This document shows positions 27,328 to 47,881 of a DNA stretch of 64,000 nucleotides, piece after piece. Origin of the DNA: Spirochaetia bacterium (GTDB lineage Bacteria; Spirochaetota; Spirochaetia; CAKZLE01); assembly GCA_963677595.1 (NCBI GenBank), contig OY782041.1, forward strand, positions 544,001 through 608,000, given 5' to 3'. The first letter of the stretch is position 1. Each line of letters opens with the position of its first letter. Below the pieces are notes generated by a model, which saw only the letters and a list, made by a program, of their open reading frames with translations, had not been told where the DNA came from and did no database searches. The translations under genes were made by a program, and so were the position numbers.

Positions 27328-27356
27328 AGTATACCTGTTGAGAAGATTTCTTTCCA
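27328..27356 (-). promoter_or_regulatory. sigma70 promoter for the DUF432-mscS operon
   Basis: TGGAAA-17 nt-TATACT, about 30 bp upstream of the start codon. Confidence 0.65.
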
Positions 27357-28035
27357 TGGAAAAATATATTATACTGTCTGAAACCAGGGATCGGAGGTGA
27401 CCGTATGTCCAGATTCTTCAAGAAGCGGGATGCAGTACTCGGCAAGCGCCCGGGAGAACTCGTCTATATAGGCAAGCACGGTACGAATGTACTCCGTGCC
27501 GATACGATCAGCTATACCCATGCAGGGCTTGCGGAACAGGAGGGGCTCCCCGCTGACAGGGTCCCGAGGTCGGCACCGGACGGGAACCTGTGGGTCAATG
27601 TCGAGGGTATCTCCGATGTCCCAGCCATGGAACAGCTGGAATCCCTCTGGGACCTCGATCCTCTGGTCGCGGCCAGTATCATGCATACCGGGACGAGGCC
27701 GATGATCATGAGGACCGGGGACGGGATCTTCTTCCTCATGAAGATGCTCTGCTACGACGAGGACCACGGGAGGATCACCTCCGAGCAGCTGAGCATGCTC
27801 ATCACCGATTCCAGGCTGATCACCTTCCAGGAAGCTGCCGGGGATGTCTTCGATGCTGTCAGGGCAAGGCTCGGGGATGTGAACTCACGCCTCAGGCACA
27901 GCGGCGTTGACTACCTCGCCTTCTCCCTCATGGATTCCATCGTGGACAACTATATGCTCATCATCCAGAACATAGCGGAAGCGGTAGAGAACATCGAGGA
28001 GAAGATGCTCGAGAGACCCGACGAGACGGTCATCC
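27329..28035. repeat. 707-bp direct repeat, left copy (target duplication)
   Basis: Matches 30194-30900; both copies abut the IS termini. Confidence 0.95.
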
Positions 28036-28094
28036 CCGGTCTTTTTACCAGAATTAGCGAGTATGCCCATTTTCCCCATTTCAGCCCTGTCTAG
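27405..28094 (+). pseudogene. corA: Truncated duplicate of the corA 5' part, fused to the IS end
   Basis: First ~211 aa identical to the ORF at 30270; then reads into the IS. Confidence 0.92.
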
Positions 28095-30193
28095 GGCTAT
28101 TTTTTTGGCCATTACGAATTTTTAAAGAAATATTACTGTGCTACGTTGTACCACGTTGCGCCACGCTACCAAATGTGTTACACTATATTACACAGGAGGT
28201 AGCCCATGCATGTCTCCGTTATCCCAGAACACGCAACCGGCAAGCATCTGATGCAGTACGTCACAAGTACCCGCAAAGGGAAAAAGACTAAGAAAACCAC
28301 GGAGGAAACCATCGGCTATGTCGAGGACTTCCTTGATCGCTATGATGACCCGGTCGCTCACTTCAAAGCAGAGGCCAAGCGGATCACAGCAGAGCGGAAA
28401 GCTCAGCAGAAGACTATAGGGGTTGAACTCCAACCCGATGCACGGCTTCCCTTCGATCCGGATACCCACAGCTTCTCCCGTGAATTCAACATCGGCCATG
28501 CGGCGATCAGTCAGGTATTCCACACCCTTGACCTCCACACCTTCTTTGATCGGCGCCGGATAAAGCTTGATGTGCAGTTCAATCTGACCGCTGTCATGAA
28601 ACTCCTCATCTATGAGCGTATTCTGGCTCCTGCCTCCAAACGCGCTACCTGGAAGTCTCGAAGGCGATACTTTGACAAGATGGACTTCAATCTCAATGCG
28701 GTATACCAGACCCTTTCTCACATCAACCCCTGGACTGATGACCTGATCGCTCACCTGCATGCGAAGATGGTAGAACTCTATGACCGGGATACCACCCTCA
28801 TGTACTATGATGTGACCAACTACTACTTTGAGATCGACGAAGCTGATGATTTTCGCATAAGGGGAATCTGCAAGGAGCACCGTCCGTTACCGATCGTGCA
28901 GATGGGGCTGTTCATGGATGAACAGGGCTTCCCGGTGTCCTTTGACTTGTTTCCCGGTAATGTCAATGACTGCCTGACCTTTGAAGCAATGAGCGAGCAT
29001 GCCAGAACCCTGTTTGAGGCCAAGCATCTGATCTTCGTAGCTGACAAGGCCATGCTCACGGGGAACAACATCGCAGATGTGATCCTCCATCATAACGGGT
29101 ATGTCTTCAGCAAGTCGGTACGGGGCGGGACGAAAAAACTCAAGCAGGCGGTCAGGGATCCTCATGGCTATCTGCGGTTTGCGGAAGACGGGAAGCTCAT
29201 TGCGCCTGGTGACAACGAGACGGCAGTCTGGTCCAAGTACAAGATCCTTGATGAGCAGAAACCCACCTATGTGACGAACACGGACGGCAAGCGGGTAGCC
29301 TCCTCAGGTGTTGGCCACTACCAGATCATCTATTGGTCACGTGCGTATGACAAACGAGCCAAAGCGCAGCGGCTGGAAGCGGTAGAGCATGCGCTTGATG
29401 CATCATCACGGCAGAGTAAGGAAGTCATCGACAGTAACTACGGGAAGAACAAGTATCTGATGACCATGGTCTATGATCCCCAGACCAAGAAGTATACCGA
29501 CAACTATAAGGCCAAGACGGAGTTTGATGCTGCCAAGCTTGAAGAAGATGAGTCGTTTGACGGATTCTATGTCATTGAGACCAATGTGACGGGGCTCAGA
29601 CCGTTTGTCGATGCCAGGGGACATGAGACCGGTGAACTCGAGCCTGCGTTTGCCACACCTCACCGCTGGCTCAAAGAAGAGGGCATGCTGCAGCTCAACC
29701 GGCCGATTGGCCCTCTGGATATTATTACGATGTACCATGGGCTGTGGAAGATCGAACAGTCCTTCAGGGTCACCAAGAGTGAGTTGGATGCCCGTCCGGT
29801 CTTTCTGTCTTTAGAGGATCGAATTCATTCCCACTTCCTTACCTGCTTCATCGCTCTGCTCATCCTGCGTATCCTGGAGCATGAACTCGATCATGAATTC
29901 TCAACAGAGCAGATAGGGACTTCCCTGAATCAGGCGAATGTCGCAGAGATCACTGGGGCAACGTACATGACTTTGCAGTACGATGAAGTCCAAAAGGCTT
30001 TGAAGGAAAAGATGGGAATCCCGTTCGGCATGAATGTATACTCGAGAGCTGCGATCAAGAAGATGATCGCTGAGACGAAAAAAAACCGGAAACGGTAGGG
30101 ACGTACTACAAGTTTTTTTAGCCAGGTGCTGACCTATTGTGTTGTATTGCAATAGGTTAGCGCCGTCATTTCCTAAATTGGTAAAAACACAGG
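28036..30193 (+). mobile_element. IS1634-family insertion sequence, copy 1 (2,158 bp)
   Basis: Imperfect IR CCGGTCTTTTTACCA / CCTGTGTTTTTACCA (13/15); near-identical copy at 45133-47290. Confidence 0.95.
28206..30098 (+). CDS. IS1634-family DDE transposase
   Basis: YYDVTNYYFE, G..KEHR, FVADKA, YHGLWKIEQSFRVTKS. Confidence 0.95.
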   Translation: MHVSVIPEHATGKHLMQYVTSTRKGKKTKKTTEETIGYVEDFLDRYDDPVAHFKAEAKRITAERKAQQKTIGVELQPDARLPFDPDTHSFSREFNIGHAAISQVFHTLDLHTFFDRRRIKLDVQFNLTAVMKLLIYERILAPASKRATWKSRRRYFDKMDFNLNAVYQTLSHINPWTDDLIAHLHAKMVELYDRDTTLMYYDVTNYYFEIDEADDFRIRGICKEHRPLPIVQMGLFMDEQGFPVSFDLFPGNVNDCLTFEAMSEHARTLFEAKHLIFVADKAMLTGNNIADVILHHNGYVFSKSVRGGTKKLKQAVRDPHGYLRFAEDGKLIAPGDNETAVWSKYKILDEQKPTYVTNTDGKRVASSGVGHYQIIYWSRAYDKRAKAQRLEAVEHALDASSRQSKEVIDSNYGKNKYLMTMVYDPQTKKYTDNYKAKTEFDAAKLEEDESFDGFYVIETNVTGLRPFVDARGHETGELEPAFATPHRWLKEEGMLQLNRPIGPLDIITMYHGLWKIEQSFRVTKSELDARPVFLSLEDRIHSHFLTCFIALLILRILEHELDHEFSTEQIGTSLNQANVAEITGATYMTLQYDEVQKALKEKMGIPFGMNVYSRAAIKKMIAETKKNRKR

Positions 30194-30900
30194 GTATACC
30201 TGTTGAGAAGATTTCTTTCCATGGAAAAATATATTATACTGTCTGAAACCAGGGATCGGAGGTGACCGTATGTCCAGATTCTTCAAGAAGCGGGATGCAG
30301 TACTCGGCAAGCGCCCGGGAGAACTCGTCTATATAGGCAAGCACGGTACGAATGTACTCCGTGCCGATACGATCAGCTATACCCATGCAGGGCTTGCGGA
30401 ACAGGAGGGGCTCCCCGCTGACAGGGTCCCGAGGTCGGCACCGGACGGGAACCTGTGGGTCAATGTCGAGGGTATCTCCGATGTCCCAGCCATGGAACAG
30501 CTGGAATCCCTCTGGGACCTCGATCCTCTGGTCGCGGCCAGTATCATGCATACCGGGACGAGGCCGATGATCATGAGGACCGGGGACGGGATCTTCTTCC
30601 TCATGAAGATGCTCTGCTACGACGAGGACCACGGGAGGATCACCTCCGAGCAGCTGAGCATGCTCATCACCGATTCCAGGCTGATCACCTTCCAGGAAGC
30701 TGCCGGGGATGTCTTCGATGCTGTCAGGGCAAGGCTCGGGGATGTGAACTCACGCCTCAGGCACAGCGGCGTTGACTACCTCGCCTTCTCCCTCATGGAT
30801 TCCATCGTGGACAACTATATGCTCATCATCCAGAACATAGCGGAAGCGGTAGAGAACATCGAGGAGAAGATGCTCGAGAGACCCGACGAGACGGTCATCC
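30194..30900. repeat. 707-bp direct repeat, right copy
   Basis: Matches 27329-28035. Confidence 0.95.
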
Positions 30901-31328
30901 CCGATATCGTCTTCCACAAGAAGGAGCTGCTCTACCTGAGGAAGACGATCCTCCCCTTCCGGGACGCCCTGCGCCAGTTCCTCAGCGACCTGCCGCCGCT
31001 CTTTGCCGATTCCGAGCGGTTCCTCCAGGACCTCCTCTCCAACCTGCTCCATATCGTGGACACGATCGAGGTCTACCGGGAGATCACCTCAGGGCTGCAG
31101 AACACCTATGACTCCTTCATGAACAACCGGCTCAATGACATCATGCGGTTCCTCACCATCTTCTCAGTCATCTTCCTGCCGCTGACGCTGATCACCGGGA
31201 TCTACGGGACGAACTTCGACTACATCCCGGAGCTGCACTTCGCCTATGGGTATCTGTTCCTCTGGGGGACGCTGGTCATCTCCACCGTGGTCATGATCAT
31301 CATCTTCAAGAAGAAGAAATGGCTCTGA
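30270..31328 (+). CDS. corA: Magnesium/cobalt transporter CorA
   Basis: Two C-terminal TM helices with YGTNF (variant of GMN). Confidence 0.9.
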   Translation: MSRFFKKRDAVLGKRPGELVYIGKHGTNVLRADTISYTHAGLAEQEGLPADRVPRSAPDGNLWVNVEGISDVPAMEQLESLWDLDPLVAASIMHTGTRPMIMRTGDGIFFLMKMLCYDEDHGRITSEQLSMLITDSRLITFQEAAGDVFDAVRARLGDVNSRLRHSGVDYLAFSLMDSIVDNYMLIIQNIAEAVENIEEKMLERPDETVIPDIVFHKKELLYLRKTILPFRDALRQFLSDLPPLFADSERFLQDLLSNLLHIVDTIEVYREITSGLQNTYDSFMNNRLNDIMRFLTIFSVIFLPLTLITGIYGTNFDYIPELHFAYGYLFLWGTLVISTVVMIIIFKKKKWL

Positions 31329-31406
31329 GACCTTTTGGCAGAACGATCGATCCATGATAGAATAAACTCTATACAAATAGACAAAGACGATAAGGAGACT
31401 TGCCTC

Positions 31407-32615
31407 ATGATAGGAGTTGAAGAGTATACCGGGAGGATAGACCGGGTCAGGACCCGCTGCAGGGAGGAGGGCCTCGATGCGTTCCTGGCAACCTCGGGAG
31501 ACAACCTCTATTACCTGACAGGTAAGTCCTTCATGCCGTTCGAGCGGCCCTTCATCCTGATCATCAGGGCTGAGGGTGAACCGACGTTCATCGTCCCGCA
31601 GCTCGAGGTGGACCATCTCCGGGTGATCAGCCATATAACGGATTTCGTGACCTACTATGAGTACCCTGCCGAGCAGGAGAAGAGCTGGCACACGATCCTC
31701 TCACAGCAGACTGCAGGCATGAAGAGGATCGGGACCGACCTCTATACCCGGTCGGAGATCTTCAGCCTCCTGGGAAAGGAAGCTGAGGTGGAGTGCTTTG
31801 ACTGGGTCTACAGCCAGAGGTTCACCAAGTCGCCGGCGGAGATCGATATGCTCAGGGAGACAGCCCGGTATGTGAGGGCCTCCATGGGTGATTTCATGGG
31901 GAAGGTACGTAAGGGGTCCATGGTCCTCGACACGCTGGAACCAGCCAAGCAGGCACAGAAGAAGGCCATGATGGACCGGGGATTCGATATCGACTTCCTC
32001 GCGTTCAACTTCCTGAGTGCAGGCTGGCCTGATGCCGCAGGGGCGGAACCACACAGCATCCCGAACCCGGCCCACCAGTTCACCGGGGGGCCGAACATGA
32101 TGGTCATGTCCTACCGGGTGGACGGCTATGCCATCGAACTCGAGCGTACCTTCTTCACGGGAGAACCGGATGATACCATGAGGGAGCGGTTCGCCCACAT
32201 GCTCGAGGCACGGGAGATCGCCTTCTCCATGCTCAAGCCCGGGGTCGCCTGCCATGATGTGGATGCGGCAGTGAGGGAGTTCATCATATCGAAGGGGTAC
32301 GCTGAGAACCTCATCCACCGCACCGGCCATGGGATGGGGGTATCGAACCATGAGGGACCCTTCCTCGCCATGGGGTCACAGACCATCCTCGAACCGGGGA
32401 TGGTGCTCACCGTGGAGCCAGGGATCTATTTCACCGGACACGGAGCATACCGCCATTCCGATACGGTCGTGATCACAGCGACAGGCTATGAGTGCCTGAC
32501 CGAGTTCCCGACCGATATCGGGAGCCTGACCCATACAAAACGGGCAGGATTGTCCACGGTCCTCAAACGCATGATCCTCTCGAGGATGCTGGAGAAAGGC
32601 CGGAGGGAAGCGTAG
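31407..32615 (+). CDS. Xaa-Pro peptidase family M24 (creatinase/prolidase-like)
   Basis: NLYYLTG, HRTGHGMG, HEGP, TVEPGIY. Confidence 0.9.
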   Translation: MIGVEEYTGRIDRVRTRCREEGLDAFLATSGDNLYYLTGKSFMPFERPFILIIRAEGEPTFIVPQLEVDHLRVISHITDFVTYYEYPAEQEKSWHTILSQQTAGMKRIGTDLYTRSEIFSLLGKEAEVECFDWVYSQRFTKSPAEIDMLRETARYVRASMGDFMGKVRKGSMVLDTLEPAKQAQKKAMMDRGFDIDFLAFNFLSAGWPDAAGAEPHSIPNPAHQFTGGPNMMVMSYRVDGYAIELERTFFTGEPDDTMRERFAHMLEAREIAFSMLKPGVACHDVDAAVREFIISKGYAENLIHRTGHGMGVSNHEGPFLAMGSQTILEPGMVLTVEPGIYFTGHGAYRHSDTVVITATGYECLTEFPTDIGSLTHTKRAGLSTVLKRMILSRMLEKGRREA

Positions 32616-33050
32616 CTACGCCAGGACCTGCTGGGCGACTTTGAGCGTGTACAGGTCCGGGATCGAGCCGCTCACCCGGCTATCACCATCAAGGAGGTCG
32701 AGCCGGAAGGCCATCTCGCCCTCCTCATGGAACAGGAAGGGGTTCATCGCCATGATGATGTTGAGCTTCTTTGCCCCAGGCCTCCTGTTCAAGTCGGCCG
32801 TCGCAATCACATTGACCGGTCCCCCATCGGTGCGGGAGGAGAGCCTGGCACGACAGAAGGAGGCAGCATCCTCCCCTTCTTCAAGCACGATCCGGATGAA
32901 GAAGGCGAGGTTCTTGGCCCTGGGCCAGGAGTCCTTCTTTGCCGGGGGGACATGGAAGATTATCGCATCATCATAGATCCCCATCAGGGAGTGCTTATTC
33001 CCGACCTCCCTCCTGATATCCTCACAGATGATGCATGCTTTCAGTCTCAT
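32616..33050 (-). CDS. DUF6941-like protein, third gene of the TA operon
   Basis: IICEDIRREVGNKHSLMGIY. Confidence 0.65.
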   Translation of the reverse strand: MRLKACIICEDIRREVGNKHSLMGIYDDAIIFHVPPAKKDSWPRAKNLAFFIRIVLEEGEDAASFCRARLSSRTDGGPVNVIATADLNRRPGAKKLNIIMAMNPFLFHEEGEMAFRLDLLDGDSRVSGSIPDLYTLKVAQQVLA

Positions 33051-33057
33051 ACGTTCT

Positions 33058-33675
33058 TCACTCCTTGGGGCAGCTGTCGCCGGGTTCGGCGGTAGCGGTA
33101 TCGAAGTCACAGCAGCCCTCCTCCAGCTGTAACGCCGGGGCGGCCGTGCAGTAGACGGTATCATCGCAGGGTGCACTCTCCGGGCTGACCGTCTGTACCG
33201 GGTTCGGGAAGGACATCCCGTCGATCAGCTTCCCGGTGATCAGCTTCAGGAAGTACTTCTGGGAGAAATCATAATCATACTTCTCCTCTGCAATATCCAG
33301 CAGCCAGGGAAAGGTCCTGAGCATGTTGAAGAGGGTATACGCCGCAGCACTGGGTCTTGAGTTCCCCGTCTTCCACTTCGATATCGTCCGCTGGGGCAAG
33401 TCGAGGACCCGCTCCATGGAAGCGAAGCTGTATCTGTTCTCAAGGAAGTACTCGAGGATGTTCTCCATGGCTTCCTTCTTCAGATCAGCCTCTGCAGCCT
33501 GCAGCAGGGCATCCGGGTCTCCCTCGGCATACACCTCATATTCACAGCTCCCGCACGTACGTGTGCTGTAGTCGACCGTCCTGGAACTCCCCGAATAGGG
33601 TTCGGTGACCACAAGGGAATCATTCCTGATGACTACCGAGGCCTCCCCGCACAGGGGGCAAACGTTTCGGCTCAT
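33058..33675 (-). CDS. MqsA-like antitoxin (zinc finger + HTH) with C-terminal extension
   Basis: CPLCG...CGSC; LDLPQRTISKWKTG. Confidence 0.75.
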   Translation of the reverse strand: MSRNVCPLCGEASVVIRNDSLVVTEPYSGSSRTVDYSTRTCGSCEYEVYAEGDPDALLQAAEADLKKEAMENILEYFLENRYSFASMERVLDLPQRTISKWKTGNSRPSAAAYTLFNMLRTFPWLLDIAEEKYDYDFSQKYFLKLITGKLIDGMSFPNPVQTVSPESAPCDDTVYCTAAPALQLEEGCCDFDTATAEPGDSCPKE

Positions 33676-34055
33676 GTTATACCTCCGTTATACAGGCAGC
33701 CGTCCACAGCGAGGGAACAGGTCGATCGCTTGAAGGACTTCAGGTACCATCTCCCGCTCACCGGGTTGTTGAGGAAGGCGATGTACCCGGTCTTCCTGCC
33801 CGACGTGAACAGGTAGGAATCCACCCAGACGGGATGCTCCCGGTCTGGGATGATATGCCCTACATGATTCCTCAAGACCTCCGACCGATCGAACCTGAGG
33901 TTCTCCAGTCCGCCGTTCCCGATGAAATCGAGCAGCCGCCCCGTCCCCCGTATGTTGAAATCGGCATAGGCATCCCTCACAGCTGCCGGCCTGACATCGA
34001 TGTTCGTATGGGTCCGGCAGGAACAAAAGAACGCCTCGGCTGTATATACTACCAT
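33672..34055 (-). CDS. Putative MqsR/RelE-fold toxin
   Basis: 127 aa, overlaps the antitoxin start; C-terminal LKSFK. Confidence 0.5.
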   Translation of the reverse strand: MVVYTAEAFFCSCRTHTNIDVRPAAVRDAYADFNIRGTGRLLDFIGNGGLENLRFDRSEVLRNHVGHIIPDREHPVWVDSYLFTSGRKTGYIAFLNNPVSGRWYLKSFKRSTCSLAVDGCLYNGGIT

Positions 34056-34065
34056 GCCTGTACTA

Positions 34066-34096
34066 CCAGATTATACGTTACGTATACGTTTGTCAA
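34066..34096 (-). promoter_or_regulatory. TA promoter with palindromic operator
   Basis: TTGACA...TATAAT with TATACGT-T-ACGTATA IR (34072-34086). Confidence 0.6.
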
Positions 34097-34338
34097 TGTT
34101 TCGTATCTTTTTTCCATACCCACCATAGAATTTCTCCTCCTTCACAAGGATATTCACCAGGACACCCGAGAACCAGGCTCCTGCATGGTATCTCACTGAA
34201 CAGATTCCCGCTATTTCCTAGTTTCATGACGGGCTTCCCATTTCAGGGTACCCCCCCCCTACCGCCTGGGATCAGCCATTAACCTTTTACCGGTATGCAC
34301 TCACTGTGTTACAATGGTAGGAAAGGAGATGGCGAGCC

Positions 34339-37300
34339 ATGGCGATAGAATTCGATATGACACTCTTCCTACTCAGGAACCTGGGAATCGTCCTCGCTTC
34401 CATCGGCGCCGTGCTCCTGACGGCCTGGCTGGTCAAGGGGAGACCGAAGCAGCTCAGCATCAGGCATTCCCTCATAACCATCGGGTTCGTCTACGCGGGG
34501 ATGCTCCTCTCGATCACCTTCTTCGTGATACTCCTGCACCATACTTTCGAGCAAGAGGATGAGATCGCTGACCACAACCTGGAATCTGTCTATCTCGCCT
34601 TCGAGCTGAAGCGCTCATCAGACGATCTCACCCGTTTCGCACGCTCCTATGCGGTGACGGGCGATCCCGATTACGAGGAGTATTTCTACCGAAGCGTTGC
34701 TGTCCGGGACGGGGTCATCCCCCACCCTGCGACCATCACCCCCTTCTACTGGGACTACGAAGCTGCAGGAGAGATGGGGATCGACACGAATGGTGAGTCC
34801 TACAGCATCGAGGAACGGATCCTGGCACTGGAGCTCACCGCAAAGGAAGAGGAGAAGCTCCTGGGGGCAAAGAAGGAGTCGGATGACCTGATCAGCCTCG
34901 AGCAGCGGGCCTTCAATGCCATGAAAGGCATATTCCCCGATGAGGCAGGTGCTTATACGGTCGAAGGGGCCCCTGACATGCCCCTGGCACAGCAGCTGCT
35001 CTACGGGGAGGAATACCTCCAGTCGAAAGCGGCGATCATGAAGCTGCTCGAACAGTTCTTCTCGCTGCACCAGGTGAGGATGTCCAGTGAGAAGCTGCTG
35101 CTGTACACCAAAGTCAATGCGCTCATGGTTACCATCACCCTGCTGGTCACCATGATGATCGGGTTCTCGGTCTATGTCTTCTTCCTCCTGAGGAGTCGCA
35201 TCATACAGCCGTTCAATGCCTTCGAACAGGGGGCGGAAGCCTTCAGGAAGGGGGATTTCCAGCACCAGATCGAGGTCGGTTCAGACGATGAGATCGGCTC
35301 CCTCGCCGCACTCCTCAACACGACCGCACGGAGCGTCGGGGAGAGGACCTCCCAGCTCCATGCCACCATCGAGTCGACCACTGACGGTATCCTGGTACTC
35401 GACCTGAACCAGAAGATAACCTCGTACAACGCTCGGTTCCTCAGGATCTGGAAGATAACCCGGGAGATGATCGAGACGGAGGATGACCAGACCATGTGGG
35501 AGGTCTTCCTCTCCCAGCTGCAGGACCCTGAGGGGTTCATGAGGAACTTCGAGCATATAACGGCACATCCCGAGATAGAGGACTTCTCCACCCTCCTCCT
35601 GCAGGATGGACGGATCATTGAACGCTATTCCAGGCCCCAGCGCCTGGAAGACCAGATCATCGGCAGGGTATGGAGTTTCCGGGATGTCACGGAACGCTAC
35701 CAGACAGAGGCTGAGATGAGAAAACTCTCCCAGGCTGTAGAAGCCAATCCCGCCTCTGTCGTGATCACCGATACGGCCGGGACCATCGAGTACGTCAACC
35801 CGAAGTTCAGCGAGATGACGGGCTACGCTCCCGAAGAGGCCATCGGCAGGAAGCCGAACCTGCTCAAGTCTGGTACCCATGCCCCTGAGTTCTACCAGGG
35901 ACTGTGGGACACGATCTCTTCCGGGAGGGTCTGGCACGGTGAGCTCTGCAACAGGAGGAGGGACGGCTCGCTCTACTGGGAATCGGCATCGATCGCACCG
36001 GTACAGGACGAGCAGGGACGGATCACCAACTATGTCGCGGTCAAGGAGGACATCACCGAGCGCAAGGAGCTGGAGACGACGCTCAGGACACATGATGAAC
36101 GGCTGAAGGAAGCGGCCAAGATAGCGGATCTCGGTTATTTCGAGGTTGATCTCCATACCCTGAGAGGGACCTTCGATGAGTTCCTGTGGGAGCAGCTGGG
36201 GACCTCGATCGAGGAGGAGGGAACCGATGAGATCAAGGTCAGCACCTACCTGGAACGGTTCTGCCACCCTGATGACCGGGAGACTATCACGCGTGAACTG
36301 CAGCACCTCATGGAGGCTTCGGAGGCCCTCTACACGGAACTCGAATACCGCATCATTAGGACGGACGGGACCCCCCGGAACGTCTATGTGCGATACAGGC
36401 TCCAGCTTGACGGAGAGCATAAGCCGCAGAAGGTATATGGTGTCATCCAGGATATAACAGCAAGGAAGCAGGCGGAGCTGGAGATCCTCAAAACCCGGGA
36501 AGAAGCGAAAAAGAATGAGGAGAAGCTGATCGAGGCTGCCGAGATCTCGAACCTGGGCTACTTCGAGCTTGACCTGCATACCCTCATTTTCACCCTCGAC
36601 AGCCTCCTGTGGAAGCAGTTGGGCACATCTATCGAGGAACAGGGGGGGAACAGCATCGACGCAGCCGAGTACCTGATGACCTACTGCCACCCTGAGGATC
36701 GCAGCAGGATCGAGTGGCACATCCAGCGGTCACTGGCCGCGCATGAAGTGATCGAGGACCAGATGGAGTACCGGGTACTCCTGGGGGACAGTACGATCAG
36801 GAATTTCGATGTCAGGTACCGTGTCCTGGTTGATGCCCAGGGAGTACCCTACAGGTCATACGGCTTCCACCATGATGTGACAGGTCTCAAACAGGCTGAA
36901 CAGGAGATCCTGCTGGCTAAGGAGGCTGCCGAGAAAGCCACTCTCGCGAAGAGCGAGTTCCTCGCCAACATGAGCCATGAGATCAGGACCCCGATGAACG
37001 CGATCATCGGGATGAGCCAGCTCGCACTCAGGACCGAGATGCCCTCCAGGCAGAGAGACTACCTGAAGAAGGTCGAGACCTCCTCGAGGACACTCCTGAA
37101 CATCATCAACGACATCCTCGATTTCTCCAAGATCGAGGCCGGCAGGCTCGATCTGGAATCCATCCCCTTCTCTCTCGATGATGTCCTGACCACCCTCTCC
37201 GACATGATCGCGGTCAGCTGCCAGGCCAAAGGGATCGAGTTCGTCTTCGATACCGATCCCCGGCTCTCCGGGCAGCTGGTCGGGGATCCCCTGAGGATAG

Positions 37301-39102: not shown

Positions 39103-40171
39103 GATCCTGATCGTTGACGACTCCGCCGAGAATCGCGGGATCATCAAGGGACTGCTGGGAGAGTCGCATACTATCTATCTCGCGAAGGACGGCAGTCAGG
39201 CCCTGCGCCTGGCCCGGACACGGGTCCCGGACCTCATCCTGATGGATGTGGTCATGCCGGTGACTGACGGGTATGAGGCCTGCAGGATCCTGAAGGGGGA
39301 CAGTCTCACCGCTGACATACCCATCATCTTCCTCACCTCACTCGATGAGACTGATGATGAGACCAAGGGACTGGAACTTGGTGCTGTCGACTATATCACG
39401 AAGCCGATCACCCCCGCGGTCCTCAAGGCTCGGGTCAGGACCCACCTTGAGCTGAAAGCCTCGGGAGACCTCCTGAAGCGCCATAACGAGGACCTTGAGG
39501 AGAAGGTCCTCGAGAGGACACGACAGCTTGAACAGCTCCATGATGTGACGGTCATAGCCATGAGTGCCCTTGCAGAATCAAGGGACTTCGAGACCGGCTA
39601 CCATATTCGGAGAACCCAGTATTATGTGGAGGCCCTCGCACAGGAACTCAGGGAGAGACCGGGATTCAGCGAAGCCCTGACCCCCGAGAACATCGTCTCG
39701 ATCGTGAAATCCACACCCCTCCATGATATAGGGAAGATCGGGATCCCCGACAGGATCCTGCAGAAGCCGGGAAAACTGACCGCGGAGGAGTTCGAGATCA
39801 TGAAGCAGCACACGATCATCGGCAGGGATGCCATCATCGCCGCAGAACGATCCATGACGATCACCGATGATTTCCTGCAGTACGCCAAGGAGATCACCTG
39901 TTCCCATCATGAGCGGTGGGACGGCACCGGTTACCCGGAGGGGTTGAAAGGCGGGGAGATCCCCCTCTCGGCACGGATGATGGCCATCGCCGATGTGTAT
40001 GATGCCCTGATCTGCCGCAGGGTCTATAAACCACCCTTCTCCCATGAACAGGCTGTGAAGATCATCACAGAGGGAAGAGGGACCCATTTCGATCCCGACA
40101 TGGTAGATGCGTTCCTCGAGATCTCCGACCAGTTCCGCATGATATCAAAGCAGTTCAGTGAGACAGAATGA
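39095..40171 (+). CDS. Response regulator with HD-GYP phosphodiesterase domain
   Basis: IVDD REC domain; LHDIGK, HHERWDGTGYP. Confidence 0.95.
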   Translation: MAKILIVDDSAENRGIIKGLLGESHTIYLAKDGSQALRLARTRVPDLILMDVVMPVTDGYEACRILKGDSLTADIPIIFLTSLDETDDETKGLELGAVDYITKPITPAVLKARVRTHLELKASGDLLKRHNEDLEEKVLERTRQLEQLHDVTVIAMSALAESRDFETGYHIRRTQYYVEALAQELRERPGFSEALTPENIVSIVKSTPLHDIGKIGIPDRILQKPGKLTAEEFEIMKQHTIIGRDAIIAAERSMTITDDFLQYAKEITCSHHERWDGTGYPEGLKGGEIPLSARMMAIADVYDALICRRVYKPPFSHEQAVKIITEGRGTHFDPDMVDAFLEISDQFRMISKQFSETE

Positions 40172-40389
40172 CACAGAAAAATGCTTACGATTCTGTAGGA
40201 TGAACAGGGAGAAACCATACAATAATGTAATCTTTACCAAAAAATGGATAGCGTATTCATCGCATGACAGGCCTGAATCCTACGTTTTCTGTGTTTGGTA
40301 CGGAAAATGCTGCTAAAACAGCTGTGACCTGATTCATTATAATCAGGATCTTTCATACACTGTTGTGTATCGAATAAACAAAGAACTAT

Positions 40390-42621
40390 ATGGAAGAGGA
40401 ACGCATGCAGCACCGAATGGTTGGAAGACATATCGCACGGGTGGACGGGCCGGAGAAGGCCACGGGAAGGTTGGAGTATATGTCCGATATCACCGTGCCG
40501 GGTATGCTCTACGGCAAGATCCTCCTCTCACCATACCATCGTGCTGAGATCGTGCATCTCGATCACACCGAAGCCATGAAGGTCAGGGGTGTCGTGAAGG
40601 TCGTCACCGCAGATGACATCCCCGGGGAGAACGCCCGCGGGCTCATCATACAGGACCAGCCGGTCCTCTGCGACAGGTTCGTGAACTTCAAGGGCGACGC
40701 GGTCGCCGTCGTCGTTGCGGAGAGTGAGGAAGCGGCATTAGAGGCCTGCAGCCTCATACAGGTCGACTATAGAGAACTCCCGTATACCAGGACAGCCGAA
40801 GAGTCCCTTGAGCCGGGTGCCCCGGAGATCCATGAGGGCGGCAACATCGCCGCCCGGAATGCCTTCAGCTCTACCGATGATATCGAATCAGTCTTTGCTA
40901 GAGCACCCCATGTCTTCGATGAGACGTTCGAGACCGGGTACCAGGAACATGCCTACTTAGAGGCAGAGAACGGCTTCGCAGTCCCCCGTGAGGACGGCAG
41001 TATCGAGATCTGGTACGGGTGCCAGCATGGGCATCGGGCCAGGAGGGACCTCCAGGCGATCCTGGATCTCCCGTTAGAGAAGATCGAGGTCCACTCCCAC
41101 CCCCTTGGGGGAGGCTTCGGGGGGAAGGATGACCTGCTGCTGCAGGGGATCCTCGCAGTATGCGCCCTCGCCTGCAGGCGGCCCGTCGCAATCAACCTTA
41201 CCAGGGAAGAATCCTTCCGGATGAGCCCGAAGCGGATGCCCTTCCAGATCAGGACGAGGATCGCAGCTGATGCAGAAGGGAACCTGCTGGCACTCAAGGT
41301 GAATATACTGGGCACCGCTGGAGCCTATATGTCCTACGCGCCGGCGATCCTCGATTTCGCCCTGGAGCTCTGCACCGGGATATACTTCTTCCCCCACCTC
41401 GATATTGAAGGCAGGGTGGCATACACGAACAGCCATCTCGTCAGCGCGTTCCGGGGGTTCGGGAACATCCAGGTCGCTTTCGCTATCGAGTCCATGATGG
41501 ACATCATCGCCGAGAGACTCCAGCTCGACAAGCTCGAGCTTCGTCGCCGGAACATGGTCACTCCCGGGCAGAAGCATAGTTTCGGCAACGTCTCCAGTAC
41601 CAGCTATTATTCTCAGGAGCTGATAGACAGGGTAGAGAAGTCCGCCCTTCTCAACCGGGCTGGTGAGTTCAAGGCCGGGGCAGCTAAGCCTTGGCTGAAG
41701 CGCGGCATCGGCATCGCGACGACCCATCAGGGCATGGGGTTCGGAAGCCCTGCCATTAACGATGCCTCGACCTGTGAGGTCGAGCTCCGGGAAGACGGGA
41801 GGCTCCATGTCTTCTTCGGTAATGAGGATATGGGACAGGGAAGTATCACCACCCTGCTGATCATGGCTGCCGAGGCGATGCATATGCCGATCGACCAGAT
41901 CTCCTACACCAATGGGAATACGGCATTGACCCAGGACTCAGGCCCGATCACCGCATCACGCGTGACCTATGTCTCGGGGAAAGCCGTCTGCCGCTGCATC
42001 GAGAAACTCCAGGGTCACATAGCTTCAGTCCTGAGCTGTGAAGTCGCAGAGCTCAGCTATACTGATGGAGGGGTGAACGGGAGAAGCTGGCAGGAGATCG
42101 CCGGGATGCTCCCGCCCGGGGACAGGCGCCAGGCACATACGGAAGCGATCGCGAAAGAGGGGTTCCAGACCTCAGTCAGCCTGAACCTCTTCTACTGCCA
42201 TGCTGCGCTTGTCGCCGGGGTGGAGGTCAACACCCTGACAGGAGAGACGATGGTACTTGAGACGGAGATCATCGTCTCCAGCGGGACGGTCATCAACCCC
42301 CTCGGGTATGAGGGGCAGTGTGAAGGCGGTGTCCTCATGAGCCAGGGGTTCGCCCTGACCGAGGAGTACCAGGACGGGACGAGGAACTTCCAGACCTATA
42401 TGGTCCCGACCTTCGCCGATATGCCGGAGATCAAGGTCACCCCGATCGAGGATCCCGAGGAGACCGGGCCGTACGGGGCCAAGGGACTTGGTGAGATAGT
42501 CAACGTGCCCGGGGCCCCGGCAATCATCAACGCGGTACATGATGCCGTGGGGATCAGGCTCATGAAGCTGCCGGCGACCTCCCAATCGGTGCTGACTGCC
42601 CTGACCGAAGGCATGGCATGA
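40390..42621 (+). CDS. Xanthine dehydrogenase-family molybdopterin-binding subunit
   Basis: GGGFGGK, AFRGFG, GAKGLGE. Confidence 0.93.
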   Translation: MEEERMQHRMVGRHIARVDGPEKATGRLEYMSDITVPGMLYGKILLSPYHRAEIVHLDHTEAMKVRGVVKVVTADDIPGENARGLIIQDQPVLCDRFVNFKGDAVAVVVAESEEAALEACSLIQVDYRELPYTRTAEESLEPGAPEIHEGGNIAARNAFSSTDDIESVFARAPHVFDETFETGYQEHAYLEAENGFAVPREDGSIEIWYGCQHGHRARRDLQAILDLPLEKIEVHSHPLGGGFGGKDDLLLQGILAVCALACRRPVAINLTREESFRMSPKRMPFQIRTRIAADAEGNLLALKVNILGTAGAYMSYAPAILDFALELCTGIYFFPHLDIEGRVAYTNSHLVSAFRGFGNIQVAFAIESMMDIIAERLQLDKLELRRRNMVTPGQKHSFGNVSSTSYYSQELIDRVEKSALLNRAGEFKAGAAKPWLKRGIGIATTHQGMGFGSPAINDASTCEVELREDGRLHVFFGNEDMGQGSITTLLIMAAEAMHMPIDQISYTNGNTALTQDSGPITASRVTYVSGKAVCRCIEKLQGHIASVLSCEVAELSYTDGGVNGRSWQEIAGMLPPGDRRQAHTEAIAKEGFQTSVSLNLFYCHAALVAGVEVNTLTGETMVLETEIIVSSGTVINPLGYEGQCEGGVLMSQGFALTEEYQDGTRNFQTYMVPTFADMPEIKVTPIEDPEETGPYGAKGLGEIVNVPGAPAIINAVHDAVGIRLMKLPATSQSVLTALTEGMA

Positions 42622-42654
42622 TACAAGAGATCACGAACAGAGAAGAGAGATAAG

Positions 42655-43131
42655 ATGCTGCATATACGATTTACACTGAACAACGAAGAAGTCGAGGCTG
42701 CTATCCCAGAGGGGACCAGGGTCATCGACCTGATCAGGGACACGTTCAAGCTGACGGGGACCAAGGAGTCCTGCGGCCAGGGGGAATGCGGGTCGTGCAC
42801 GATCCTCCTTGATGATGAGGCCGTTCACTCCTGCCTGCTCCTGGCAGCCCAGGTAGATGGGCATCGGATCGTGACGATCGAGGGACTTGAGAAGGACGGC
42901 GAACTCGATGTACTGCAGCAGGCATTCATCGATGCCGGGGCGATCCAATGCGGATACTGCACCCCCGGTATGATCATGGCGGCGAAGGGGCTGCTGCTTC
43001 ATAATCCATCACCAAGCCCTGAGGAGATCAGGGAAGCGATGTCCGGGAACCTGTGCCGGTGCACCGGGTACAAGAAGATCGGTGAAGCCGTCGCGCTGTC
43101 AGCCGAACGGCAACAAGGTTCGGGGGTATGA
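42655..43131 (+). CDS. XDH-family 2Fe-2S subunit
   Basis: CGQGECGSC, QCGYCTPG, LCRCTGY. Confidence 0.95.
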   Translation: MLHIRFTLNNEEVEAAIPEGTRVIDLIRDTFKLTGTKESCGQGECGSCTILLDDEAVHSCLLLAAQVDGHRIVTIEGLEKDGELDVLQQAFIDAGAIQCGYCTPGMIMAAKGLLLHNPSPSPEEIREAMSGNLCRCTGYKKIGEAVALSAERQQGSGV

Positions 43132-43970
43132 GTATGAGGCTCTCCATAGACAAGATCTATCAATGCGAAACCATAGACCAAGCCCTGGATCAACTCAAGC
43201 AGGATCCTTCAGCGATCGTGCTGGCGGCAGGGACGGATATCATCCCTACCCTTCGTGACCGTGTTCAGGAGCATGTCAGGCTCGTGGACCTGCAGGGTAT
43301 ACAGGGACTGGACCATATCAGGCTTGAGGAGGGTGTTCTGAGAATCGGGTCCATGGCCATGCACCAGGAGATCGCGGACAACCCGGTCGTGGGAGACCTG
43401 CTGCCGGCCCTGGCCCAGGCCTGCCGGGTGATCGGATCCCCGCAGATCCGCAGGCGTGCGACCATCGGGGGGAATATATGCCATGCATCGCCAGCGGCAG
43501 ACACCCTGCCCGTTCTCGTTGCAGTTGGTGCCCATGCAGTCATCAGAACCCCGGAAGGGACGAGAACCGTCCTGCTGGAGCAGTTCACTACCGGCGTGAA
43601 GAAGACGGTCATGCCGCAGGCTGCGATCCTTGAAGAAATAACGATTCCCATCCCTGCAGGCGGTTGGAAGGGGAACTACTACCGCCTGGGAGGGAGGAAT
43701 GCCCTCACCATCTCGATAGCGGCTGTTGCAGTCATACGGGATACAGACGGGTTCCGGGTGGCTTATGGGTCCATGGCCCCGGTCGTAAGAAGGATCCAGG
43801 CTGTTGAGACATACCTGAATACCTGTGAGCATGCAGACAAGGCTGTCCTGAATGATCTAACGACCCAATCCCTCTCCCCTATTTCAGATATTCGGGCTTC
43901 AAAGGAATATAGGACACAAGTAGCTGCCAACTTCACCTGGCTTGGGTGGCAAGAGTTGATGGGTGTGTGA
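43128..43970 (+). CDS. XDH-family FAD-binding subunit
   Basis: AAGTD, QIRRRATIGGN, PISDIRAS. Confidence 0.92.
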   Translation: MSMRLSIDKIYQCETIDQALDQLKQDPSAIVLAAGTDIIPTLRDRVQEHVRLVDLQGIQGLDHIRLEEGVLRIGSMAMHQEIADNPVVGDLLPALAQACRVIGSPQIRRRATIGGNICHASPAADTLPVLVAVGAHAVIRTPEGTRTVLLEQFTTGVKKTVMPQAAILEEITIPIPAGGWKGNYYRLGGRNALTISIAAVAVIRDTDGFRVAYGSMAPVVRRIQAVETYLNTCEHADKAVLNDLTTQSLSPISDIRASKEYRTQVAANFTWLGWQELMGV

Positions 43971-44062
43971 GGGAGCCCAGCCTGCACGTGTATGGTATCT
44001 GAGGTTTCATTCGTCTTACTGTCTTACTTGCCTGGTATAAGAAGTTATAGTATGCTTTGAGT

Positions 44063-44356
44063 ATGAGATTGAGGGAAAAGGAACTGGCCATCATTATATC
44101 AACGTTGAAGGAGCATACTCCTGATGCATCGATGTATCTCTTTGGAAGCCGAGTCGATGACAACGCCCGCGGCGGTGATATCGATCTTTTTCTCTCCACT
44201 AATAGAGAAGTCTCCCTGGACGAAAAGATCAGCATGCTCACTCATCTCGCAAGGAACGGGATCTGCCGCAAGGTGGATCTCATCATACAGACACCTCACA
44301 AGAGGCAGCATACCCTGTCCCGGGAAGTGATGAAGAGAGGGATTCGATTATGCTGA
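44063..44356 (+). CDS. MNT minimal nucleotidyltransferase antitoxin
   Basis: LFGSR...GGDIDL. Confidence 0.88.
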   Translation: MRLREKELAIIISTLKEHTPDASMYLFGSRVDDNARGGDIDLFLSTNREVSLDEKISMLTHLARNGICRKVDLIIQTPHKRQHTLSREVMKRGIRLC

Positions 44357-44823
44357 AAAAGAATCCTCAACTCCTGTTCAAGGACTATCTCGTCAAAGCT
44401 GAATTGCATATAACTAGAGGCAGAACCGCTCGTGAGGAGATTCAGGGATGGGATCTGTTGTCCCCTGCTGTATTTCTTGATCCTGAGAAAGTAAAGACGA
44501 TTGATTCTTTCATCTTCCGGTTCGTGAAGCTCCAGGATCTTATCGGCCAGAAGCTCTTCAAACTCTATCTGGATGTCGTAGGAGAACTTCAGGATGATAT
44601 GTCCTTTCTTGATGTTCTTGACAGACTCGAGAAGTTGCATATTATCAAGGACTCTGACCGATGGTTTGGTTTTCGTAGACTGCGCAATGAACTCACGCAT
44701 GAATATCCTGACAATGAGTCTGAGATTATCGAGGGTATCACACTTGCTCTCGAGGCCTTCGATGAGACGGTCATGATCATAGATCGATTGAACATGGAAG
44801 CGAAACGGTTTCCTGGGGAGTGA
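44350..44823 (+). CDS. HEPN-type toxin (HepT/DUF86-like)
   Basis: RNELTH (R-x4-H). Confidence 0.85.
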   Translation: MLKKNPQLLFKDYLVKAELHITRGRTAREEIQGWDLLSPAVFLDPEKVKTIDSFIFRFVKLQDLIGQKLFKLYLDVVGELQDDMSFLDVLDRLEKLHIIKDSDRWFGFRRLRNELTHEYPDNESEIIEGITLALEAFDETVMIIDRLNMEAKRFPGE

Positions 44824-44912
44824 AGGACTCGGGTTGACGCCTTAAAAAAATATCGGCTGAGATTTCTCCCAGCCGGTAATGATTTTTCATCGTATGAAAG
44901 TTCATAAGGAAG

Positions 44913-44984
44913 AGCGGCTGAAGGGAGTCGAACCCTCGTCACGAGCTTGGGAAGCTCGGGTAATAGCCGTTATACGACAGCCGC
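44913..44984 (-). tRNA. tRNA-Gly(CCC)
   Basis: GCGGCTG/CAGCCGC acceptor, CGAGC-TTCCCAA-GCTCG anticodon arm, TTCGA T-loop; CCA not encoded. Confidence 0.95.
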
Positions 44985-45003
44985 AGGTAACCGAACACAA
45001 GTC

Positions 45004-45031
45004 ATTATACCGAACTTGAAGAATTAATCAA
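45004..45031 (-). promoter_or_regulatory. sigma70 promoter of tRNA-Gly
   Basis: TTGATT-16 nt-TATAAT, 20 bp upstream of the tRNA. Confidence 0.7.
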
Positions 45032-45132
45032 CTATTTATGGTCAATTCATCAGAATATAGTAAGCCACCCGGGCATCCTGGTTGAGCTATGCCGGAATAT
45101 CACATCCTACAGAGTATCAGCATTTTCAGACG
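45005..45132. repeat. 128-bp direct repeat, left copy
   Basis: Matches 47291-47418 with one mismatch (45102 A vs 47388 C). Confidence 0.95.
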
Positions 45133-47290
45133 CCGGTCTTTTTACCAGAATTAGCGAGTATGCCCATTTTCCCCATTTCAGCCCTGTCTAGGGCTATTTT
45201 TTTGGCCATTACGAATTTTTAAAGAAATATTACTGTGCTACGTTGTACCACGTTGCGCCACGCTACCAAATGTGTTACACTATATTACACAGGAGGTAGC
45301 CCATGTATGTCTCCGTTATCCCAGAACACGCAACCGGCAAGCATCTGATGCAGTACGTCACAAGTACCCGCAAAGGGAAAAAGACTAAGAAAACCACGGA
45401 GGAAACCATCGGCTATGTCGAGGACTTCCTTGATCGCTATGATGACCCGGTCGCTCACTTCAAAGCAGAGGCCAAGCGGATCACAGCAGAGCGGAAAGCT
45501 CAGCAGAAGACTATAGGGGTTGAACTCCAACCCGATGCACGGCTTCCCTTCGATCCGGATACCCACAGCTTCTCCCGTGAATTCAACATCGGCCATGCGG
45601 CGATCAGTCAGGTATTCCACACCCTTGACCTCCACACCTTCTTTGATCGGCGCCGGATAAAGCTTGATGTGCAGTTCAATCTGACCGCTGTCATGAAACT
45701 CCTCATCTATGAGCGTATTCTGGCTCCTGCCTCCAAACGCGCTACCTGGAAGTCTCGAAGGCGATACTTTGACAAGATGGACTTCAATCTCAATGCGGTA
45801 TACCAGACCCTTTCTCACATCAACCCCTGGACTGATGACCTGATCGCTCACCTGCATGCGAAGATGGTAGAACTCTATGACCGGGATACCACCCTCATGT
45901 ACTATGATGTGACCAACTACTACTTTGAGATCGACGAAGCTGATGATTTTCGCATAAGGGGAATCTGCAAGGAGCACCGTCCGTTACCGATCGTGCAGAT
46001 GGGGCTGTTCATGGATGAACAGGGCTTCCCGGTGTCCTTTGACTTGTTTCCCGGTAATGTCAATGACTGCCTGACCTTTGAAGCAATGAGCGAGCATGCC
46101 AGAACCCTGTTTGAGGCCAAGCATCTGATCTTCGTAGCTGACAAGGCCATGCTCACGGGGAACAACATCGCAGATGTGATCCTCCATCATAACGGGTATG
46201 TCTTCAGCAAGTCGGTACGGGGCGGGACGAAAAAACTCAAGCAGGCGGTCAGGGATCCTCATGGCTATCTGCGGTTTGCGGAAGACGGGAAGCTCATTGC
46301 GCCTGGTGACAACGAGACGGCAGTCTGGTCCAAGTACAAGATCCTTGATGAGCAGAAACCCACCTATGTGACGAACACGGACGGCAAGCGGGTAGCCTCC
46401 TCAGGTGTTGGCCACTACCAGATCATCTATTGGTCACGTGCGTATGACAAACGAGCCAAAGCGCAGCGGCTGGAAGCGGTAGAGCATGCGCTTGATGCAT
46501 CATCACGGCAGAGTAAGGAAGTCATCGACAGTAACTACGGGAAGAACAAGTATCTGATGACCATGGTCTATGATCCCCAGACCAAGAAGTATACCGACAA
46601 CTATAAGGCCAAGACGGAGTTTGATGCTGCCAAGCTTGAAGAAGATGAGTCGTTTGACGGATTCTATGTCATTGAGACCAATGTGACGGGGCTCAGACCG
46701 TTTGTCGATGCCAGGGGACATGAGACCGGTGAACTCGAGCCTGCGTTTGCCACACCTCACCGCTGGCTCAAAGAAGAGGGCATGCTGCAGCTCAACCGGC
46801 CGATTGGCCCTCTGGATATTATTACGATGTACCATGGGCTGTGGAAGATCGAACAGTCCTTCAGGGTCACCAAGAGTGAGTTGGATGCCCGTCCGGTCTT
46901 TCTGTCTTTAGAGGATCGAATTCATTCCCACTTCCTTACCTGCTTCATCGCTCTGCTCATCCTGCGTATCCTGGAGCATGAACTCGATCATGAATTCTCA
47001 ACAGAGCAGATAGGGACTTCCCTGAATCAGGCGAATGTCGCAGAGATCACTGGGGCAACGTACATGACTTTGCAGTACGATGAAGTCCAAAAGGCTTTGA
47101 AGGAAAAGATGGGAATCCCGTTCGGCATGAATGTATACTCGAGAGCTGCGATCAAGAAGATGATCGCTGAGACGAAAAAAAACCGGAAACGGTAGGGACG
47201 TACTACAAGTTTTTTTAGCCAGGTGCTGACCTATTGTGTTGTATTGCAATAGGTTAGCGCCGTCATTTCCTAAATTGGTAAAAACACAGG
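45133..47290 (+). mobile_element. IS1634-family insertion sequence, copy 2 (2,158 bp)
   Basis: Same termini and transposase as 28036-30193 (H2Y difference). Confidence 0.95.
45303..47195 (+). CDS. IS1634-family DDE transposase
   Basis: As 28206-30098. Confidence 0.95.
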   Translation: MYVSVIPEHATGKHLMQYVTSTRKGKKTKKTTEETIGYVEDFLDRYDDPVAHFKAEAKRITAERKAQQKTIGVELQPDARLPFDPDTHSFSREFNIGHAAISQVFHTLDLHTFFDRRRIKLDVQFNLTAVMKLLIYERILAPASKRATWKSRRRYFDKMDFNLNAVYQTLSHINPWTDDLIAHLHAKMVELYDRDTTLMYYDVTNYYFEIDEADDFRIRGICKEHRPLPIVQMGLFMDEQGFPVSFDLFPGNVNDCLTFEAMSEHARTLFEAKHLIFVADKAMLTGNNIADVILHHNGYVFSKSVRGGTKKLKQAVRDPHGYLRFAEDGKLIAPGDNETAVWSKYKILDEQKPTYVTNTDGKRVASSGVGHYQIIYWSRAYDKRAKAQRLEAVEHALDASSRQSKEVIDSNYGKNKYLMTMVYDPQTKKYTDNYKAKTEFDAAKLEEDESFDGFYVIETNVTGLRPFVDARGHETGELEPAFATPHRWLKEEGMLQLNRPIGPLDIITMYHGLWKIEQSFRVTKSELDARPVFLSLEDRIHSHFLTCFIALLILRILEHELDHEFSTEQIGTSLNQANVAEITGATYMTLQYDEVQKALKEKMGIPFGMNVYSRAAIKKMIAETKKNRKR

Positions 47291-47418
47291 TTATACCGAA
47301 CTTGAAGAATTAATCAACTATTTATGGTCAATTCATCAGAATATAGTAAGCCACCCGGGCATCCTGGTTGAGCTATGCCGGAATATCCCATCCTACAGAG
47401 TATCAGCATTTTCAGACG
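47291..47418. repeat. 128-bp direct repeat, right copy
   Basis: Matches 45005-45132. Confidence 0.95.
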
Positions 47419-47881
47419 GGACTGAAGTTCGAGGCATCTCATTATCAAGTATCCTGTATAGGTACTCTTTCAGAAGCATCTTGACCGTCGTTCCTCTCTG
47501 TATTGCTTCTTGTTTGATCCTGTCCTGCAATTCGTAAGGAACCGTGAATGAGTATTCATCCATTGGAGAGATGAACAGGGATCCATTGACTGCTGTACTC
47601 ATCTTCCTCAGGATGTCGTAACTCGGCTTGCCTTTCATCCTGAGTACCCGTGAGATCGCGCTTTGCTTTGTCCCCATGGTTCTTGCGATATCATCTTGGG
47701 TCAAGTTCTGGATATCTTTCAGGAATTCAAAATCGAGTATGAACTGTGATAGAGCACCCCATGTCTCTTCGAATTCAAGAAACTTTTTATCCCCTTCAAC
47801 CAATTCATCAACATATGAATCGATATCATCTATGGGCTTCAATTCCAATGAATCAAGTTCTGGATTCTCTTCTCTTCTCAT
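47393..47881 (-). CDS. XRE HTH antitoxin (HigA-like)
   Basis: LTQDDIARTMGTKQSAISRV. Confidence 0.8.
   Translation of the reverse strand: MRREENPELDSLELKPIDDIDSYVDELVEGDKKFLEFEETWGALSQFILDFEFLKDIQNLTQDDIARTMGTKQSAISRVLRMKGKPSYDILRKMSTAVNGSLFISPMDEYSFTVPYELQDRIKQEAIQRGTTVKMLLKEYLYRILDNEMPRTSVPSENADTL

Follow-up and report, generated by a model that had tools for sequence, protein, structure and literature searches.

The window analysed here (64,000 nucleotides, positions 544,001 to 608,000 of contig OY782041.1, assembly GCA_963677595.1, from a Spirochaetia bacterium) contains two copies of a 2,158-bp insertion sequence (IS) of the IS1634 family; coordinates are collected in Table 1. The element has one open reading frame (ORF) and imperfect terminal inverted repeats of the C-----YT type that start with CC (CCGGTCTT and CCTGTGTT). 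The two copies differ at one internal base (28209), which is C in copy 1 only and T in the other four copies of the genome, changing transposase residue 2 from Tyr to His. Each copy is flanked by a long direct duplication of target DNA: the two copies of the 707-bp duplication show no mismatches, and those of the 128-bp duplication show one. A sequence-only reading of this DNA had placed both IS right ends inside leftward sigma70-like promoters, and this was confirmed with a promoter scanner. The boundary of the 707-bp duplication falls between 27329 and 27328 and that of the 128-bp duplication between 45005 and 45004, in both cases between the fifth and the sixth base of the -10 hexamer (5|6). 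In the duplicate promoters that face into the two IS copies, the last T of the -10 is replaced by the terminal C of the IS, so that these duplicates are predicted to be weak. The same reading had assigned the first promoter to a DUF432-mscS operon: mscS is indeed present, and the preceding gene gave a weak match to DUF432 (E 0.026, below the Pfam cut-off). The second promoter had been assigned to a glycine transfer RNA (tRNA) gene, and a tRNA-Gly(CCC) was found there. The terminator-like hairpin with T tract inside the left end of copy 1 is also present in copy 2 (from 45180), and such a hairpin would be expected to shield the transposase gene from read-through.

Table 1. Features of the two insertion loci and of a second element of the same family (window positions, except for the last row).
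Feature	Position	Strand	Remark
mscS	25715-26551	-	after the DUF432-like gene
DUF432-like gene	26555-27298	-	first gene downstream of targeted promoter; weak match
Predicted sigma70 promoter TGGAAA-17-TATACT	27356-27328	-	ahead of DUF432-like/mscS genes; promoter scanner
707-bp target duplication, left copy	27329-28035		part of promoter and 5' two-thirds of corA
corA, truncated 5' part	27405-28035	+	runs into IS left end
IS1634-family IS, copy 1	28036-30193	+	2,158 bp
Intrinsic-terminator-like hairpin and T tract	28083-28106	+	just inside IS left end; consensus match only
Transposase, 630 amino acids	28206-30098	+	DDE triad D202/D280/E517; Tn5-like core; N-terminal beta-sheet-plus-helix region of about 95 amino acids
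707-bp target duplication, right copy	30194-30900		joined to IS right end
corA, intact	30270-31328	+	restored by duplication
tRNA-Gly(CCC)	44912-44984	-	20 bp downstream of -10 box
Predicted sigma70 promoter TTGATT-16-TATAAT	45031-45004	-	of tRNA-Gly; promoter scanner
128-bp target duplication, left copy	45005-45132		
IS1634-family IS, copy 2	45133-47290	+	transposase 45303-47195
128-bp target duplication, right copy	47291-47418		joined to IS right end
Second IS1634-family element, copies L029 and L261	G000:C1:757087-759134, 1576178-1578224		

The five copies of this IS in the genome have duplications of 707, 577, 128, 564 and 213 bp, all within 128-707 bp instead of the 5-6 bp typical of the family. 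Read on the strand opposite to the transposase gene, the junctions were TATAC|T, TATAG|G, TATAA|T, TATAG|G and TGGAA|A. When this strand was scored with generic sigma70 weight matrices, which were not trained on these sites, the best promoter reached 9.0-12.1 bits at every copy, with its -10 ending at +1, -10, +1, -4 and -8 relative to the junction. A promoter of at least 9 bits with a -10 ending from -13 to +4 was thereby found at 5/5 copies, the background rates being 0.64% (20,000 random positions) and 3.1% (5,000 AT-rich positions). The motif TATA[ACG] occurs at 0.5% of intergenic positions and at the junction of four of the five copies (binomial p 3e-9, a value qualified by the motif having been picked after the sites were seen). 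The remaining copy, L026, has no TATA at its junction, and yet it lies 8 bases behind TTGACA-18-TAGAGT. All five right-end junctions were located in or just behind a predicted -10 on one strand, which agrees with the fixed IS orientation proposed earlier and supports the placement of the promoter-side junction on the template strand; the second junction, as also proposed, lies upstream at a variable distance. What did not extend to all copies was the common base step, since the exact 5|6 position was present in two of the five and the others fell 4-10 bases behind the best-scoring -10. Taken together, the junctions of this element are spread over about 11 bases, roughly one bubble length, and those of the three copies without the 5|6 position lie at places expected for the open bubble or for its downstream edge. 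The target of copy L021 (G000:C1:785438-787595) is promoter-like and lies between convergent ORFs of at least 100 codons; as no gene of that size begins downstream, its product may be a small or non-coding transcript.

The transposase scored 299 bits (E 6.5e-89, cut-off 100) against NF033559, the NCBIfam model of the IS1634 family, and matched the Pfam family DDE_Tnp_1; its closest homologues were records titled Spirochaetia and Sphaerochaetaceae. Residues D202, D280 and E517 are invariant in 30/30 aligned relatives, with a long spacer before the catalytic E. No solved relative was found by sequence search; the predicted model of the protein (mean predicted local distance difference test, pLDDT, 81.6) best matched Tn5 transposase (Z 16.7, root-mean-square deviation 4.8 over 345 residues). 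The N-terminal region (residues 1-95, window 28206-28490) is a three-strand sheet with a helix, for which no Foldseek match was obtained at E 0.001, the best Z being 6.1 and that of an arm-type integrase domain 4.5. A second IS1634-family element of the same genome, whose protein is 31-34% identical, is present in two copies (L029 and L261, with duplications of 94 and 298 bp), and its ends too are at or near -10-like boxes.

Relatives of the element were then compared. Their loci were gathered by homology and family searches, and element ends were placed by means of the inverted repeats together with a prior on the end motif, an adjoining repeat earning a bonus; promoter sequence played no part. 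The 352 distinct transposase sites comprised 93 with a long duplication, 41 with a short one, 8 with a partial call and 210 with none (many of them cut off by contig ends); eight of the 93 long-duplication calls were removed as tandem or mis-called, leaving 85. A strict -10 (TA...T, with at least 5/6 matches) ended at the junction or at +1 on the right-end antisense strand in 34/85 sites, and the same measure gave 4/85, 5/84 and 1/84 for the other combinations of strand and junction. In a tree of 75 element clusters all 34 positive sites fell into one 50-tip clade (FastTree support 0.99), within which 34/74 sites were positive, as opposed to 0/11 outside it. Counting either end, the strict -10 at 0 or +1 was present in 39/74 clade sites, representing 25/40 element clusters, and when one random site was drawn per cluster it was found in 21.7/40 clusters on average. 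A promoter of at least 8 bits was close to one junction in 57/74 clade sites. Held-out sites lacking an accepted long duplication gave 28/46 positives in the clade and 4/32 outside it, in a looser test that used the upstream side alone. The site rule, by which one end lies in or just behind a predicted -10 across this clade, very probably holds on these comparisons.

Analysis of the surroundings of the clade sites, with ORFs called by a simple script, revealed that the right junction was intergenic in 62/74 sites and the far junction in 35/73, and that the nearest gene on the downstream side started in the direction of the promoter in 58/74. The duplications extend upstream of the promoter and measure 32-853 bp (median 115.5). 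None of the 74 was below 32 bp, as compared with 4/40 long-duplication sites outside the clade (p 0.014, a weak post hoc comparison); a minimum of 32 bp would fit the footprint of the polymerase, which we note as an equally weak, post hoc point. Five left-end cases (L094, L100, L283, L290 and L291) are mirror images, with the left end at the 5|6 step (+1) of a rightward promoter of 9.0-15.4 bits. The two ends are alike at 11-12 of 12 bases in the elements of four of them and at 8/12 in L290; in L090 and L337, which are symmetric, it is the right end that is used.

Rather than by promoters, the junctions might be set by the transposase reading TATAAT-like sequence directly, or by the meltability of promoters under negative supercoiling, with no need of RNA polymerase. 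Consistent with this, ATA-N or TATA-V is present at the junction in four of the five own copies and at loose ends in contigs of the sequencing runs X1 and X2, registers differ between elements (see below), and the short-duplication relatives favour AT-rich targets of 5-6 bp (PMC2266710). The sequence-only reading had named a preference for NTATACC in the absence of -35 elements as one result that would speak against promoters, and this was not what we observed. In the 45 sites whose -10 lay no more than 3 bases from the junction, TTG was counted 5, 14 and 2 times at spacers 16, 17 and 18; no other spacer between 8 and 31 had it more than 4 times. As controls, 158 intergenic -10 hexamers located at most 150 bp upstream of a same-strand ORF were taken from the same loci. 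TTG at spacer 16-18 was found in 18/39 strict sites and in 13/158 controls (Fisher p 2e-7), and TTG or an extended-10 TG in 31/39 and 27/158, respectively; in control hexamers of the own genome the corresponding figures were 344/1,879 and 538/1,879. An excess of -35 or extended-10 elements in register over equally good intergenic hexamers argues against direct reading, as does copy L026, and we regard this explanation as rather unlikely.

The tRNA-Gly promoter provided a further case. One X2 contig matches 45004-45076 and is preceded by sequence like the right end of a related IS (one contig, 30 letters), so that a different, related IS looks to be joined to the same -10, one base further on; two IS elements in the same promoter suggest repeated independent targeting. 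Every other loose end in runs X1 and X2 starts with N-TAT on the top strand; one of them fits a TG-extended -10 at register 0, and one ends in TATA-N. Contigs of other runs diverge at the 3' end of tRNA-Gly, some of them probably carrying tRNAs of other organisms.

Inspection of individual elements showed that L351, L386 and L414 cut after base 6 and L090, L094 and L337 between bases 5 and 6, and that the register is scattered in L353 and L359. Judged from these sites, each element or subclade has a register of its own, and not a universal 5|6; a fixed 5|6 register for all copies is ruled out by these differences and by the offsets of the own copies. The sharp registers within many elements (e.g., L351, L386 and L414 at 0; L090 and L337 at +1) could be expected if the transposase were tethered to sigma or to another RNA polymerase subunit, with geometry and not melting setting the cut. 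Such a contact has been proposed for TnGBS (PMC3942029), and conserved residues specific to the clade cluster near the catalytic core (e.g., N205, I230, Q232 and S304). The spread of the present element's junctions over about a bubble's length, however, is not what a purely geometric rule would give. In a closed complex, moreover, the polymerase covers the -10 DNA in which the cut falls. On these grounds we consider tethering decidedly unlikely.

Long duplications were also found in elements that do not target promoters. The order of G1083 supplied 29 more long-duplication sites, all outside the clade (site L540 having been left out as mis-called); a -10 was at the junction in 1/29, so that the 40 non-clade long-duplication sites (11 plus 29) had it in 0 and 1 cases; their median duplication was 81.5 bp. 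Neither the sigma70 -10 nor xAnnTTTG, the Bacteroidota promoter consensus, was enriched among the 29 sites, which instead had an A at both joins (25/29 and 24/29). Archaeal elements with a called duplication (family of G750), likewise outside the clade, have duplications of 5-6 bp. The earlier suggestion that promoter targeting explains the long, variable duplications was thus contradicted: since long-duplication sites outside the clade lack the -10, targeting is not their cause. The simplest reading would have promoter targeting arise later, in elements that already had a long-duplication mechanism, an order that is tentative because the tree is rooted only by midpoint or by the short-duplication elements. 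The N-terminal region of the transposase is about 45-50 residues longer in long-duplication elements, within the clade and outside it, than in short-duplication ones (mean 91 versus 40). Because it is present in non-targeting elements too, it is not the promoter-specific part; it is a candidate for the distance-making step.

The existence of such a step without promoters bears on the order of the two joins. In a reversed order, the upstream join would come first, followed by tracking or strand displacement until an open promoter is reached and the second end is joined there; the equally long duplications of the non-targeting relatives, with A at both joins, are in keeping with it. A random first join, however, would need a correctly oriented promoter within reach and would leave many junctions off promoters, and this disagrees with the frequency of promoters of at least 8 bits close to a clade junction given above. 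Three clade elements (L232, L277 and L287) have apparent 4-6 bp duplications at a -10-like junction, which may be real one-step insertions or assembly chimeras; if real, they would perhaps count against the reversed order as well, the register being the same. We consider this order improbable. Selection offers another way to the same pattern, in which insertion into AT-rich DNA is near random and harmless intergenic events are kept; the copies seen in a genome are indeed those that survived, and the DNA of promoter regions is rich in AT (GC content dips at several junctions). It would give neither a single-base register nor a strand bias nor a -35 peak at 17 bp, and the non-clade long-duplication elements, under the same selection, show the -10 in 0/11 and 1/29 sites; this makes selection a most improbable explanation.

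Based on these results, elements of this widespread clade join one end in or just behind the -10 of predicted housekeeping promoters and the other 32-853 bp upstream, and likely reach these sites by way of DNA opened by sigma70 RNA polymerase. Of this, the place and orientation of the junction, its -35 and extended-10 context and the upstream direction of the duplication are read from the sequences themselves. As to the target itself, we favour on balance the open complex, with the unwound template strand attacked, the second end joined beyond the polymerase footprint, and the promoter duplicated rather than destroyed. In DDE chemistry each 3'-OH joins its own strand, which puts the promoter-side join on the template strand and the far join on the non-template strand. 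In the sigma70 open complex the template strand is exposed, and a complex of transposase and IS ends would attack it within a zone from about -8/-7 to the downstream edge of the bubble, with some local preference for an AT-rich step. Joining of the second end upstream would be a separate step, and the DNA between the two joins would be copied by host replication or repair. With the promoter-side cut lying between genes, no single gene reaches across the two cuts, and so the original promoter is retained together with the genes on either side.

Several observations weigh against this account. Thirty-five of the 74 clade sites have no strict -10 at 0 or +1, and close relatives with 54-63% identity often score poorly (e.g., L031, L035, L164 and L167). 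Four of the five own copies carry TATA-V at the junction, including those whose best promoter is 4 or 10 bases upstream of it, which shows some direct sequence reading. One X2 junction, with 26 bases visible, has a -35-like hexamer about 8 bases from the junction and does not fit. The promoters are consensus predictions, obtained in part with generic weight matrices, and the p values are overstated because copies of one element and related hosts are not independent.

Regarding the remainder of the window and the sample, a corA query gave no match in two genomes of the same genus examined for an empty site, and no joint across the IS was seen in the sequencing-run contigs. The tRNA-Gly locus is flanked by a gene resembling nucleotidyltransferase substrate-binding proteins (44350-44823, below cut-off) and by a helix-turn-helix gene (47393-47881). 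Two genes at 32616-33675 gave weak matches to DUF6941 and to an MqsA-type antitoxin, both below cut-off. A tRNA-Met called by ARAGORN at 54179-54274 lies within an opposite-strand ORF of 651 amino acids and is probably false. In G061 (L110-L139) and G834 (L408-L430), several IS1634-family elements lie densely clustered, a few kb or less apart.

The site rule supplies a precise target for some members of an IS family in which the long duplications had been without a mechanistic model (PMC2266710). Since the promoter fixes one junction and the duplication always runs the same way from it, the two strand transfers become separable and can be ordered experimentally. Long duplication and promoter targeting are separable traits, and the confinement of the second to one clade provides natural controls for finding the residues responsible. 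It is also a mode of insertion that leaves genes unbroken while copying promoters and 5' parts of genes. If capture of the open complex is correct, each element would record the position of a promoter open in vivo at near base resolution, and such a transposase could be used to map active promoters.

Among known systems, the yeast retrotransposon Ty3 resembles this clade in integrating at an initiation zone under the guidance of the initiation machinery, a guidance that for the clade is what the sites lead us to infer. Ty3 is a long terminal repeat retrotransposon guided by TFIIIB/TFIIIC, and its duplications are short. In bacteria, TnGBS, ISLre2 and ISKra4 insert in an oriented manner 15-17 bp upstream of the sigmaA -35, the orientation being relaxed when the inverted repeats are alike, and contact with the RNA polymerase initiation complex has been proposed for them, with Ty3 integration at RNA polymerase III start sites named as an analogy (PMC3942029). 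The present clade is like these elements in its oriented insertion at a fixed place relative to promoters. They have a Mutator-like (p-MULT) transposase, whereas that of the present IS belongs to DDE_Tnp_1 and IS1634, with the Tn5 fold; and they leave the promoter uncut, whereas in this clade the cut is made in or just behind the -10 and the promoter is restored by the long upstream duplication.

Within its own family, defined by a typical duplication of 5-6 bp, a length of 1,500-2,000 bp and C-----YT ends (PMC2266710), the present IS is slightly above the length range. It shares with IS1634 of Mycoplasma mycoides and IS1549 of Mycobacterium smegmatis the family, a single DDE transposase, ends starting with C and long, variable repeats. 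For these two elements direct repeats of 8-514 bp were described, with no mechanism proposed as of that paper, whose passages on them mention no promoter rule, unlike what is found in this clade (PMC2266710); passages of PMC3053259 and PMC11004492 add no target rule. The long-duplication elements sampled from small TGA-recoding genomes and from the order of G1083 fall outside the clade and show no -10. Short-duplication members such as ISGka5, with 6 bp (PMC8024623), and the sampled elements of a methanogen family belong to the same hidden Markov model family and have similar ends; those sampled have AT-rich duplications of 4-6 bp with no -10/-35 register, and an N-terminal region about 50 residues shorter. 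A literature search, thin on subscription journals and without supplements, found no report of -10 targeting by IS1634-family elements. The cutting of the promoter core, rebuilt by duplication, is in our judgement a real, general and precise rule, and represents a distinct variety of promoter-targeted transposition in one clade of a known IS family.

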